Below, piece after piece: positions 38,228 to 44,568 of a stretch of DNA of 64,000 nt. The DNA is from an uncultured Bacteroidales bacterium. Its GTDB lineage: Bacteria > Bacteroidota > Bacteroidia > Bacteroidales > UBA932. The notes below the pieces were generated by a model that saw nothing but the letters and a program-made list of their open reading frames with translations, was not told the origin of the DNA and made no database searches. The stretch lies in NCBI GenBank assembly GCA_900320365.1, contig ONSC01000007.1, forward strand, positions 1,477-65,476, in the 5' to 3' direction. Position numbers and translations under genes: made by a program. Every line of letters starts with the position of its first letter. Position 1 is the first letter of the stretch.

Positions 38228-39157
38228 TTAAGCTTTTTTATCCTTGATCGTGTCAAATCCTTTACCATAGACACCCGCGACAGAGGAGACTGACAAGAAA
38301 GCGTCTGAGTCTATCTGCTTCACCGCCCTGAGCAACATGTTCACATCCGTCTTGCGAGTGATGACCATAAGGACAGAGGACTCCTGTTTTGTATACCAGC
38401 CTTTCCCATCTAAGATTGTCACACCGCGATGGAAATCCCGTGCTATCATGTCAGCGATAGCCTCATGGTGATGTGACATGATGAATATCTGCACGCTCTG
38501 TTTTGACCCAGCCAGATAAAGATCCGCAACATTACCGCACACGGTGACGATAATCATTCCGTATACGGCTGTGATGAACTTATCCACAAATGGAAGTCGT
38601 TGTCCATCAGCAGTATAGGAGGGTACCAGGAGAGATGATGCGATAATGAACACATCAATCAGCAGGATCACCTTTCCAGGAGAGATATTATGGAACTTCG
38701 TGATAATGAGAGCTATGATGTCAGTACCTCCGGTGCTGCCGCCTTGAGAGATGGACATCCCTATTCCGAAACCGGCCATCGAACCTCCAATTATGGAGCA
38801 GAGAAGCTTGCCATTTGAAAAAGCGAAATCCTGGATAAACTGAGCCGGGATGATGCTCTGCTCAATATTAAGGCAGAAAGATGCCAGGAATATGGCATAT
38901 ACAGTCTTGATTCCGAAAGAAGGTCCTATAATGAACAACGAGATCAGCAATAACAAAGCGTTGATCACGAAATAGGTATAACCCATCTTTATCCCAGTGG
39001 CGAATTGGACGATGGCGCTTATACCGGACACTCCACCTCCAAACATGTTGTTCGGAGTGAGGAAGATTGTCCAGCCACAGGTATATATCAGGATTCCAAG
39101 CGTGATGAGGACGTACTCCTTAATTGTCCGCAGGATGTTCTTCTGTCTGTTAGCCAT
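38228..39157 (-). CDS. YitT family membrane protein (DUF2179 C-terminal domain)
   Basis: 309 aa. ...GGVSGISAIV..., SQGGSTGGTDIIALI, and a C-terminal GVTILDGKGWYTK...FLSVSSVAGVYGKGF DUF2179 domain. Confidence 0.8.
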   Translation of the reverse strand: MANRQKNILRTIKEYVLITLGILIYTCGWTIFLTPNNMFGGGVSGISAIVQFATGIKMGYTYFVINALLLLISLFIIGPSFGIKTVYAIFLASFCLNIEQSIIPAQFIQDFAFSNGKLLCSIIGGSMAGFGIGMSISQGGSTGGTDIIALIITKFHNISPGKVILLIDVFIIASSLLVPSYTADGQRLPFVDKFITAVYGMIIVTVCGNVADLYLAGSKQSVQIFIMSHHHEAIADMIARDFHRGVTILDGKGWYTKQESSVLMVITRKTDVNMLLRAVKQIDSDAFLSVSSVAGVYGKGFDTIKDKKA

Positions 39158-40073
39158 TGTTCGATTTCTTTTTACGCATCAATTTGAGACCAGTCTTCAT
39201 CTCGTCGAAACCCTCCCCATAGACAGTGCTAGCTGAAGAGACTGTCACAAAGGCGGAAGGATCTATCTCCTTCACAGTCTTGGTGATTGTATGAAGCTCG
39301 GGTTTACGCACCATGATTAGCAGCACTTTTTTGTTCTCACCGGAATACCACCCTTGGGCGTCAAGGGCTGTCACACCCCTGTTGAGATCATGGATAACGG
39401 TGTCCGCTATCTCCTTGTATTTATTGGAGAACACCATAATCTGCCATGTCGAGTTCCGCCCCAGGAGTACCCAATCCACAAAAACCGAGAAGATGACCAT
39501 GGCGACATAACCATAGACCATATCCTCCACGGTCTTACCGGGAATCAAGAGTATCGAGGCTATGATGAACACATCCATAGCAAGGAAGACCTTACCCAAT
39601 GAAACCGGCCAGAACTTATTGACTATCAACGCGACAATATCGGTTCCTCCAGTGCTTCCACCTCGAGCCAGGATGCATGTAATGCCGATAGACTCGATGA
39701 TGGCGGCCACTATCACAAGGAGAAGTTTATTGTCGAAAAACACATGTAGAAACTCCATTCCAGCGAGGAAATCAAGCCCTACAGTGGATAGTCCTATAGC
39801 GTAAAGGGTCTTGAATCCGAAGCCTTTTCCGAGAATGAGGGTTCCGAGCAATATGAGCAAACCATTGACAACAATATAGGACAGGTACACCGGAATGCCT
39901 GTGGCGAAATTCAGAATCGTACATGCTCCTGTCAGACCTCCGCTGGCTATACCATTGGGTATCAGCATGTCCGCCCATGCGAAGGTGTAAAAGAGCACTC
40001 CTATGGTTATAACCACATAGTCATCCAGAACGCTCAGGAACGAAGATTTGCTTTTAATCAGCCTCGGGGACAT
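39150..40073 (-). CDS. YitT family membrane protein (paralog, tandem)
   Basis: 307 aa with the same architecture (ARGGSTGGTDIVALI; GVTALDAQGWYSG...FVTVSSASTVYGEGF). It overlaps the downstream paralog by 8 nt. Confidence 0.8.
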   Translation of the reverse strand: MSPRLIKSKSSFLSVLDDYVVITIGVLFYTFAWADMLIPNGIASGGLTGACTILNFATGIPVYLSYIVVNGLLILLGTLILGKGFGFKTLYAIGLSTVGLDFLAGMEFLHVFFDNKLLLVIVAAIIESIGITCILARGGSTGGTDIVALIVNKFWPVSLGKVFLAMDVFIIASILLIPGKTVEDMVYGYVAMVIFSVFVDWVLLGRNSTWQIMVFSNKYKEIADTVIHDLNRGVTALDAQGWYSGENKKVLLIMVRKPELHTITKTVKEIDPSAFVTVSSASTVYGEGFDEMKTGLKLMRKKKSNNG

Positions 40074-40080
40074 GGTTGAA

Positions 40081-42754
40081 TCACTTTATGACAATATTGA
40101 CAATTCTACCGGGTACCACTATGATTTTAACTATGCTCTTGTCGCCAACCCACTTGGATGTCTGCTCCATCCCACGGATCTCGGCCTCAACTTCGGCCGG
40201 AGTCATAGACTTTGGAAGATCGACCATGAAGCGGGTCTTGCCATTGAATGAGACAGGGTACTTGACACTCTCTTCCGCGGCAAGTGATGGATTGAATACA
40301 GGGAAAGAAGCGTACGTCACGCTATCCTCATGCCCAAGAAGAGACCAAAGCTCCTCAGCGATATGAGGCGCGAATGGCGACAAGAGTATTGTCATAGGCT
40401 CCAAAATAGCGCGCTTGCAGCACTTCAAGGCACTAAGGTCATTCAACGCTATCATGAAAGCGCTGACCGTGGTGTTGAAAGAGAAGTGCTCAATGTCGTA
40501 TTCCTCTTTACCAATAAGCTTATGGAGAACCTTTAGTTCCTCATTGGTAGGCTCCTCATCTGAAACGGCGAGAGAGTCACCGTCAAAGAACATCCTCCAG
40601 AATTTCTTTAGGAAGCGGTTGACACCGTCGATACCTTTAGTGTCCCAAGGTTTGCTCTGCTCGAGCGGTCCAAGGAACATCTCGTAAAGCCTCAATGTGT
40701 CAGCGCCATAATCGTCGCAAATCTTGTCAGGATTGACAACATTGAACATGGACTTGCTCATCTTCTCGACAGCCCATCCGCAGATGTATTCCCCATTCTC
40801 AAGGACAAACTCCGCGTCGGCGAACTCGGGCCGCCACGCCCTGAAACCGTCGAGATCGAGTTTGTCGTTCCCCACAAGACTAATGTCCAGATGTATCTCG
40901 CTGGTTGATGAGCTTGCGGAAAGGCTCGTCCTCGCACACATAGCCGAGATCGAACAAGAACTTGTTCCAGAAGCGGGAATAAATGAGATGACCGGTGGCA
41001 TGCTCGGTTCCGCCGATGTAAAGATCGACATCCCTCCAATAAGCATCCACGTCTTTATCCACAAGCGCCTCATCGTTATGAGGATCCATATACCTGAGAT
41101 AATATGCGCTGGAACCGGCGAAACCAGGCATGGTGCTTGTCTCAAGAGGATAACCATTATAAGTCCAGTTCTTGGCTCTGGCGAGCGGCGGCTCACCATT
41201 CTCAGTGGGTTTGAACTCGTCTATCTCAGGAAGAGTCAGAGGCAAGTCCTCGAACGGAACCGGAGTAGGAATCCCGTCCTTATAGTAGATCGGGAAGGGC
41301 TCACCCCAATACCTCTGACGGCTGAAAATAGCGTCACGTAGCCTGTAGTTGACCTTGGCGTGACCCAGCCCCTTTTTCTCCACATAATCGATAGCCGCAG
41401 GGATGGCGTCCTTAACTTCCATCCCATCCAGGAATCCGGAATTGACCATCTTGCCTTCCTTGGCGTCGAAACTCGACTCACTCACATCGCAACCTTCGAT
41501 GATCGGGACGATCGGGAGATTGAATTTCTTGGCAAACACATAGTCCCTGCTGTCATGTGCGGGTACAGCCATGATAGCTCCGGTACCATACCCCGCCAAG
41601 ACATACTCGGAAATCCAGATGGGAACTCTCTCGCCTGTCAAAGGATTCACTCCATAAGAACCTGAGAAGACTCCCGTGACGGTCTTTGTCTCGGCGATTC
41701 TCTCCCTCTCAGTCTTTTTCTTCACATAAGCCAGATAATCAGCCACTTCCTTCTTCTGATCATCGGTCGTAAGAACCTCAACAAGTTCGCTCTCAGGAGC
41801 CAAAACCATAAAGGTCACTCCAAAAATAGTGTCCACCCTGGTCGTGAATATGGTGACATCATGCTCGACATCCCCGTTGAAGCACTTGAACACGACCTCG
41901 CAGCCTTTAGACTTGCCGATCCAGTTACGCTGCATCTCTTTGAGGGAATCGGTCCAATCGATCCTGTCAAGCCCCTCAAGCAGCCTTCCGGCATACGCTG
42001 AGACCCTCAACTGCCACTGCATCATCTTTTTCTGCTCAACAGGGTAGCCTCCCCTGACCGAGAGTCCGTCTTTAACCTCGTCATTGGCCAGAACAGTACC
42101 GAGACCGGCGCACCAGTTTACGGATGTCTCACCTTGATAAGCGATGCGATAATTCATCAGCATGTCGGATTTCTCCTTGTCAGAGAACGACTTCCACTGA
42201 TCAGCGGAGAAAGGCTCATGATCGGAGCAAGCCGCGTTGACAGCGGCGTCGCCTCCTTTCTCGAAAGCGGCGACAAGGTCCTCAATGGGACGGGCCTTGT
42301 CAAGATCAATATCATACCAGCTTCCGAACATTTTCAGGAAGGCCCACTGCGTCCACTTGTAGTAAGCGGGATCGCAAGTGCGGACCTCGCGGTCCCAATC
42401 ATAGGAGAAACCGATCCGGTCCATCTGCTGGCGGTAGCGGTTTATATTCTTCACGGTCGTGACCTCAGGATGCTGGCCTGTCTGGATGGCATACTGCTCG
42501 GCGGGAAGTCCAAAGGCGTCATAACCCATGGGATGGAGGACATTGAAGCCCTTCAATCTCTTGTACCTGGAGAAAATGTCACTGGCAATATAACCCAGGG
42601 GATGCCCTACATGCAATCCGGCTCCAGAAGGGTAAGGGAACATGTCGAGAACATAGAACTTAGGTTTCGACGGGTCCGCCTTGGTCTTGAAAGTACCTTT
42701 CTCCGCCCAATAAGACTGCCACTTGCTTTCAATTGTCCTGAAATCGTAATCCAT
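40081..42754 (-). pseudogene. leuS: leucine--tRNA ligase, interrupted by a frame-shifting internal deletion (N-part 40880-42754; C-part in another frame, about 40893 down to 40081)
   Basis: The N-part starts [16 protein letters not shown], has HVGH ([10 protein letters not shown]), and runs to ...EPFRKLINQ followed by RDTSGH-stop. The second frame carries [26 protein letters not shown]...[16 protein letters not shown] (KMSKS) and the anticodon-binding C-terminus. The conserved QGM(I/V) motif and following residues are missing at the junction. Confidence 0.8.
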
Positions 42755-42777: not shown

Positions 42778-44568
42778 TCAATACTTTTTCAAACCGAAAC
42801 TCTTGGTCCCTTTTTTCTCCAAGCGGAACTCAACGTAAAGGGACATCTCCGAGCTGACTTTCTGCCCTCTGACCCTGCCGGGTTTCCATTGGGGAGAGGC
42901 GCTTATTATCCTCACAGCCTCATCGTCCAAAAGAGGATCCGCCCCCTTCAGGACTTTCACATTCCTGACCTTACCGTCTTCACCGATCACAAAATCCACA
43001 AGCACGCGCCCCTGGATGCCCTGGCTGATAGCTTCCTCGGGATATTTCATATAAGAATACACCCATTTCTTAAGGAACACTTTCGGGTCGTCACTCCCGA
43101 GGAAAGAAGGCTTGACGTCGCAATCGTAATATGGTACGGCATCAGACACACCTCCAGTCAATTTGACCACATCGGAAGGGTTGAATATCGGTTTCGGTCC
43201 TCCAGAGAGAGCGATCGCGTAGCTGTAGATGAACTCAAGTTCCCTCTCCATCGTCTCATAGTCTATGATTGACTGGGTGTCACGCTCTGTGTCATGAGCC
43301 GGATACCTGCCAGTCGTGAAAAAGACCGAGGGAATCTTCTTGTCATAAAACGCTATATGATCTGAAGGGTACGGCTCTTGCGCCGTGATGGTCGGTCTGA
43401 TAGGCTGCAACTCGTTGGAGAGGGCCTCTGCGATCGCATTCATGTCGGCATTTGAGGCGGTATATGCGAAGAAACCGTCAGAGCCGGTGCCGAGCATGTC
43501 CAAATTGATCATGGCGTCAATATTGGAAACATCAGAGAACGACCTGTTCAGGAAGTACCAGGAACCGGCGAATGCCTCCCTTGAGGCACCGAAAGCGACC
43601 AGCAGGACAGACCTGCGAAGCAAGGCCTTATTGGTCTTGAGCATCCGGGCGAGCTCAAGCATCATGGCCACACCTGACGCGTTCCCGTTTGCCCCGTAAT
43701 AAATCTTCTCAACCTTCACGCCATCTACAGTCATAGACCCCGTGCCTAGGTTATCCATCCTGGCACCTATGACTATATAATTATCCCTCAACGTCTTGTC
43801 ACCTCCTTGAATGAAAGCGCACACATTCCTTGAGACAAGGGTATCGCCATTCTCCTGACGTATTCCGAAAGGATCTCCTCCATCCTGTGAAATCACATCG
43901 ATCCCATAGGATTTCAGTGTCTCAGTGATATAGTCCGCCGTGAGTTTCTCGCCTTCAGAACCGGCCTTACGGCCTTCCATCATAGCGGAAGAGATGGTCG
44001 TCACATGTTCCTTGAAAGCGGATACTGTCTCGCTGTCTTTCTTTCTGTCTAAAATCCAGACGCCCTCAGGGCAAAAATCCTGCCCTTTCAACTCTTTCAT
44101 GAAAGCTTTAACCTCCTCAGGATCATCAGTCCCCCCGATACCGACGGCGGTGCGCCCCTCTGTGAAGCCGAAGAACTCCGGCTCATAGCCATAGGCCTTG
44201 ATACGTTCGGCGTATTTGACAGCGTTATCTTTGCTCGAGAATGCTCCCATAATCACATAATAACGCTTCTTTTCCGCCTTCTTCCCTGTCACCCCCGGCT
44301 TGACCGGGGATCCGGCGGGATGATCGGTCACGGCCGAGTCCATCCTCGCTTCGCCTTGCTCCGCTGCGGCTGAGTACGGCCTTTGCCCGTCGTCCCGCCG
44401 GTCAGGAGCCGATACCTCTTCTTCCTGATAGGAGCGAAGGATCTTCTCACGCTTTACCTCGATATCCTTCGAAGTCGGCCTCCCAGCCAACATACGGAAG
44501 AAATCGCACCCCGTCGCCATCATGGCGACGGACAGCAAGACAACAGCGATCTGGAGAACTTTTCTCAT
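42778..44568 (-). CDS. lipoprotein fusing SPOR domain, M28 aminopeptidase-like domain and TonB C-terminal domain
   Basis: 596 aa with lipoprotein signal ...MMATGC. SPOR-like [32 protein letters not shown]28-like ...[19 protein letters not shown]...DMLGTG...SDHIAFY. TonB_C-like [56 protein letters not shown]. Confidence 0.7.

Follow-up and report, generated by a model that had tools for sequence, protein, structure and literature searches.

Leucyl-tRNA synthetase (LeuRS) is encoded by leuS, which is an essential gene. In Aquifex, the alpha subunit of the enzyme is 634 aa long and the beta subunit 289 aa. The heterodimeric alpha-beta LeuRS of Aquifex aeolicus was the subject of Xu et al. 2002 and Ma et al. 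2006, of which PMC3643597 and PMC4005665 give summaries; the split lies within its leucine-specific domain, LSD (PMC3643597). The LSD of the E. coli enzyme comprises A571-M617 (PMC3643597). Replacing it by GKDG leaves about half of the catalytic efficiency, and replacing it by AAAA abolishes aminoacylation (PMC3643597). The LeuRS of M. mobile, which has a GKDG linker, and that of B. subtilis contain no LSD (PMC3643597).

The leuS gene considered here lies in a window of 64,000 nucleotides (the whole stretch of DNA that was analysed), and it is also interrupted in the region of this domain, by the loss of 92 nt. The loss is truly present in the deposited contig, and the gene occurs in an intact form in the sample that is the probable source and in others. 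We believe it to be probable that the loss arose when a rumen metagenome with low coverage and several strains was locally mis-assembled, and that the leuS gene of the organism is ordinary, uninterrupted and 921 codons long.

The leuS gene of the window

The gene is distributed over two frames (Table 1). The original prediction was that the two ORFs make up one class I LeuRS broken by a frame-shifting internal deletion; this is confirmed by the ORFs themselves, by MAFFT and by protein alignments. The N-terminal ORF encodes 624 aa and ends in ...KLINQ followed by RDTSGH, with the TAG at 40882-40880. It contains the CP1 editing domain and the class I signature motif HIGH in the form HVGH (residues 48-51, positions 42613-42602). 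The other class I signature motif, KMSKS (40764-40750), is also present; it belongs to the C-terminal frame, which reaches a normal C-terminus at 40081.

The N and C pieces were analysed against the profiles one by one. Against NCBIfam TIGR00396 (leuS_bact, cut-off 548 bits) the N piece scores 733 bits and covers profile positions 142-564; the C piece scores 176 bits and covers 593-843. Pfam reports tRNA-synt_1, the LeuRS editing domain PF13603 (6e-61), Anticodon_1 and PF08264 (8e-15) on the pieces, and the editing, anticodon-binding and C-terminal domains are all found in the gene. What the window lacks is a complete LSD in one open frame of about 921 codons: 92 nt are gone and the frame is shifted. 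The amino acid identity to the 921-aa members of its 90% cluster is about 92%, and the protein alignment with cluster members reveals no further lesions in the remaining 890 codons. Judging from these matches, we assign the gene to the family of ordinary bacterial LeuRS enzymes, from which it departs only in the continuity of the frame.

The gene starts with the ATG at 42754, giving the MDYDF... that the orthologues and the database record also have, and not with the TTG at 42781; the latter start, which appears in the ORF list, would overlap the end of the upstream gene. This upstream neighbour (42778-44568, minus strand) encodes a 596-aa lipoprotein with SPOR, Peptidase_M28 and TonB_C domains (Pfam). 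The downstream neighbour, at 39150-40073, encodes a YitT/DUF2179 membrane protein.

The missing segment in alignments and in independent contigs

The alignment of the window (41200-40600, MAFFT) with nine genomes of the same genus contains a single clean gap of exactly 92 nt, which sits between ...AACCAG (ending at 40901) and CGAGAT... (from 40900). HSP coordinates give 92 nt more than in the window for 16 of the 17 congeners; the 17th congener, G010, has a 57-N scaffold gap exactly where the junction of the window is. The 92 nt equal 30 codons plus 2 nt, and 31 residues are lost (GMIQG...DQYQTT, ortholog positions 619-649); the residue count balances, 618 + 31 + 272 = 921. The missing segment corresponds approximately to residues 577-605 of the T. 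thermophilus LeuRS (1H3N), starting from QGMV. This correspondence was obtained via P0007, a full-length cluster member that aligns over the entire T. thermophilus enzyme, and it identifies the lost segment as the beginning of the LSD. We also considered an insertion in the relatives in place of a deletion in the window; it is rejected, because T. thermophilus has the homologous QGMV segment and the frames of the window are offset.

According to the original prediction, the QGM motif and the first part of the LSD are absent, the deletion takes about 30 codons, and its length is not a multiple of 3. The orthologue alignment bears this out: the GMIQG... segment is missing and the size is now exact. 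The position proposed for the deletion, 40893-40897, has to be corrected to 40901|40900, where the alignment places the junction. The GTG named as the only candidate start of a C-terminal piece is read in the sequence, 4 nt after the TAG.

Logan contigs, which are built independently, of the runs X1, X2, X3 and X7 were aligned to positions 40200-41600. The comparison was thus made at the level of contigs, and such contigs drop rare variants. X1 is the best-matching public run, with 94% of the sampled 31-mers of the gene, and is probably the sample that yielded the MAG, as judged from the share of words and not from documentation. A 2921-nt contig of X1 (depth 7.85) contains the 92 letters between 40900 and 40901, and the X1 contigs are consistent with an uninterrupted leuS frame. 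Runs X2 (8137-nt contig) and X7 (961-nt contig), which belong to other studies, also have the 92 letters at 40900|40901; X2 additionally has a loose end with 10 readable residues. The X3 contigs end at the junction, and their loose ends, when reverse complemented, read GMIQG. None of the contigs listed for the four runs joins 40900 directly to 40901. Since contigs of the probable source sample and of other studies carry the 92 bases, the break most likely reflects a mis-join in the assembly, and the organism itself would not have it.

The protein records and related genomes were also considered. The exact 624-aa product is recorded from one contig only, the window's own (68,633 nt). The cluster to which it belongs at 90% identity comprises 76 members; those listed at full length have 921 aa and come from 1-24 contigs each, and a split leuS like that of the window is not among the listed members. 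Among the 119 congeners that gave a match, leuS runs through about 921 codons without interruption in about 105, and a split like that of the window is in none of the 119. The search of the MAG, which is 95.3% complete, found no second leuS, only weak matches to other class I synthetases (contigs C46 and C155), and no copy of the missing 31 residues elsewhere in it. In the JGI metagenome contigs both the junction 24-mer and a 36-mer of the junction-adjacent haplotype are absent, which neither confirms nor excludes a real allele.

Table 1. Positions in the window of leuS, its parts and the features around the break
Feature	Positions	Strand	Basis
leuS, bacterial-type leucyl-tRNA synthetase, two frames of one gene	40081..42754	-	TIGR00396, Pfam, cluster alignment
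N-terminal ORF: 618 genuine residues, 6 out-of-frame residues (RDTSGH) and TAG	40880..42754	-	
C-terminal frame, 272 codons and stop: rest of the LSD, KMSKS, anticodon-binding and C-terminal domains	40081..40899	-	
GTG, sole candidate start for a separate C-terminal piece	40873..40875	-	read from the sequence
Junction lacking 92 nt, blunt, without microhomology	40900..40901		gap against 9 congeners; Logan contigs
Patch of a haplotype other than the main X1 strain, 114 nt, adjoining the junction	40787..40900		X1 contigs
Nucleotide-conserved block directly 5' (gene sense) of the junction, behaving as an inter-species repeat	40905..41005		0.82-0.86 identity
Second conserved block, KMSKS region, 3' of the variable LSD stretch	40757..40817		0.84-0.88 identity

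Assembly context and rival explanations

The MAG consists of 244 contigs with an N50 of 15.7 kb. It was scaffolded and has 21 N-runs of 4-62 nt, which we take as estimated gap sizes; because of these gaps, the bridging of holes some tens of bases long by read pairs must be regarded as routine in this assembly. The k-mer depth at leuS in X1 is about 5-8, and X1 holds at least two strains, as two 217-nt variants with depths of 4 and 4.9 differ at 9 positions. The outer flanks match X1 almost perfectly, and the differences of the patch are confined to the 114 nt beside the junction. One X1 contig has 4 differences from the window in 40759-40900, but 1 in 40901-41600; another has 0 differences in 40481-40786. 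Two of the four patch differences, 40828 and 40833, were seen, and both are synonymous. Since such differences look like real polymorphisms, the patch arm should be genuine DNA of some distinct haplotype. By an arithmetic estimate, the 6% of words absent from X1 correspond approximately to the patch and the junction. The rest of the MAG may contain further strain mosaics.

The variable LSD stretch is made up of the patch plus the missing 92 nt and is flanked by blocks conserved among congeners (the identities in Table 1 are mean pairwise values among congeners). The summed contig depth at the block next to the junction (40905-41005) is 234-463 in X3, against a baseline of 16-25, and 114-397 in X7. 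The KMSKS block shows depth spikes as well, and the X1 contigs break and overlap there, at 40759-40786. The spikes are due to contigs of other organisms stacking at the blocks.

We presume that the join arose as follows. The variable LSD stretch lies between two blocks that are near-identical among co-occurring congeners, and the assembly graph would branch there. The assembler would leave the main strain at the KMSKS block for a short tip of the other haplotype, the patch of Table 1; this tip would then be butt-joined to the next block, with the intervening 92 nt omitted. The likeliest cause would be a scaffold join made from read pairs with an estimated gap of zero, although the exact assembler step is something we infer. 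The overlap of the two sides at the junction is 0 in the contigs of X1, X2 and X7; in the absence of microhomology, a k-mer collapse does not account for the join. Joins of this kind are not produced by de Bruijn errors alone, so at least one read or scaffolding step created it.

The LSD stretch of leuS appears to be a hot spot of assembly break points in this genus. Contigs of congeners end in leuS at residues 600/631 (G007), 582/647 (G129), 622 (G117) and 645 (G066), the ends of G117 and G129 being verified. The 57-N gap of G010 (contig C155 of that genome, extracted region 1891-1947) falls at residues 615-632; its region is 97 nt longer than the window, not 92, and the N-run estimate is off by 5 nt. 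Five of about 17 break points lie inside 7.5% of the gene (binomial 0.007), a value that is descriptive only, the zone having been picked post hoc.

Other irregularities of leuS were encountered among these MAGs. The 57-N run of G010, taken literally, would break the frame. The frame changes on a single contig in G106:C1 (residues ~324-332) and in G128:C16 (~708-714); leuS of G057:C118 has an internal gap, 175-234, and that of G097:C60 has one in-frame TAG. The rough base rate of apparent leuS lesions is about 4-5%.

The original prediction offered three explanations without ranking them: an assembly artefact, a pseudogene compensated by a second leuS elsewhere, and an Aquifex-like split enzyme. 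The artefact is now favoured, as the independent contigs carry the 92 letters, which begin with GMIQG. An intact sequence with QGM, which the prediction had named as the sign of an assembly error, exists at the contig level in the probable source and in other runs. A second leuS was sought in the 95.3%-complete MAG and not found, and the pseudogene explanation in that form is not supported. A different possibility is a real deletion allele in the minority: the 92-nt loss would be carried by some strain living alongside, or by few cells of the sample, and the assembler would have taken that arm of the bubble. It would have to be a fresh null that is probably lethal or strongly deleterious, or DNA of dead cells. 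We consider this unlikely, while acknowledging that the synonymous polymorphisms of the patch are absent from the main X1 contig, that the blunt join must exist in some read if it does not come from the scaffolder, and that a rare variant would be dropped from the Logan contigs. Against it, leuS is essential and the MAG offers no second copy, the shortened product is known from one contig only, and the junction is in none of the contigs listed for the four runs, nor in the JGI metagenome contigs. Five other MAGs have an assembly break at this spot, too. Moreover, the contig is a mosaic in any case, since both outer flanks are of the main strain. Even a real deletion would be no more than a null allele of the minority, the dominant form of the gene being intact.

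The two remaining explanations require that the interrupted gene be functional. It is tempting to propose a two-piece LeuRS, in which the 624-aa product and a GTG-initiated 264-aa product are made by termination and reinitiation (TAG, 4 nt, GTG) and the LSD is shortened: the break is inside the LSD, where the Aquifex enzyme is split (PMC3643597), the candidate GTG is close to the stop, and the E. coli enzyme retains about half the catalytic efficiency when a short linker takes the place of the LSD (PMC3643597). We find it very improbable nonetheless. The 31 residues that are gone include the conserved GM(I/V) leading into the LSD, AAAA in place of the LSD inactivates the E. coli enzyme (PMC3643597), the second piece has no ATG, and the tail of 6 out-of-frame residues looks accidental. 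None of the 119 congeners has the split, nor do the listed cluster members or the other contigs of the same sample, and the intact form in that sample largely refutes the proposal. What was anatomically apt in the suggestion of an Aquifex-like split is the position of the break in the LSD; the loss of residues, the lack of a proper second start and the absence from congeners and same-sample contigs speak against the rest. That a minority rumen strain truly has the 92-nt deletion and survives with a TAG-N4-GTG two-piece LeuRS with a truncated LSD is equally improbable. Still less credence, indeed hardly any, can be given to a +1 ribosomal frameshift at ...AAC CAG C GAG... that would produce a single-chain LeuRS minus 31 residues. 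One base skipped after CAG would join the frames; however, the site shows none of the known +1 shift motifs and has neither a stop nor a rare codon, the TAG comes 6 codons later, the product would be without GMIQG, and the site is conserved nowhere among the nine aligned and 119 matched congeners. We thus retain the mis-assembly as the preferred explanation.

Significance and comparison with described enzymes

The broken leuS is most likely not a real feature of the organism, and the matter is chiefly one of data quality. The MAG is the representative genome of its species and in its deposited form carries a broken essential gene; annotation pipelines will call this leuS a pseudogene or two partial proteins. 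As assemblies in this genus repeatedly break at the LSD stretch, an apparent Aquifex-like split LeuRS in MAGs should be compared with the reads before it is accepted. A real and tolerated deletion would amount to a rare experiment of nature on the LSD, although the evidence points against this; if the two-piece LeuRS were true, an independently arisen Aquifex-like split would have been caught at its origin.

The window gene shares HVGH, CP1, KMSKS, and the anticodon-binding and C-terminal domains with ordinary bacterial LeuRS (T. thermophilus 1H3N/2BYT, E. coli 4AQ7). What differs is that in the window the frame is broken and the 31 residues of the LSD start are absent.

The Aquifex split is resembled only in the break position. 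The break is likewise in the LSD, upstream of KMSKS (ortholog residue 618|650), and the N-terminal piece is of similar size to its Aquifex counterpart, by the lengths given at the outset. In contrast, Aquifex has a complete and unusually large LSD distributed over two proper genes, while the window has lost 31 residues and gained a 6-residue out-of-frame tail. The second piece in Aquifex is a proper gene; in the window the only candidate start is the GTG that follows the TAG by 4 nt, and an ATG is lacking. Finally, the split is a fixed trait in Aquifex, and that of the window is absent from its lineage (119 congeners) and from the contigs of four runs.

LSD sequence is missing, as in the window, from the enzymes without this domain (M. 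mobile, B. subtilis and the E. coli variants EcLeuRS-GKDG and EcLeuRS-AAAA). There the whole domain is replaced in frame by a flexible linker; in the window the loss is partial, the core GMI is gone and the frame is shifted. There is also a likeness to metagenome mis-assemblies at inter-genomic repeats or strain bubbles, where likewise an essential gene appears broken between conserved blocks in a multi-strain sample and its intact form is present in the data. The lesion of the window would be, within this class, a clean 92-nt omission adjoining a short patch of a foreign haplotype.
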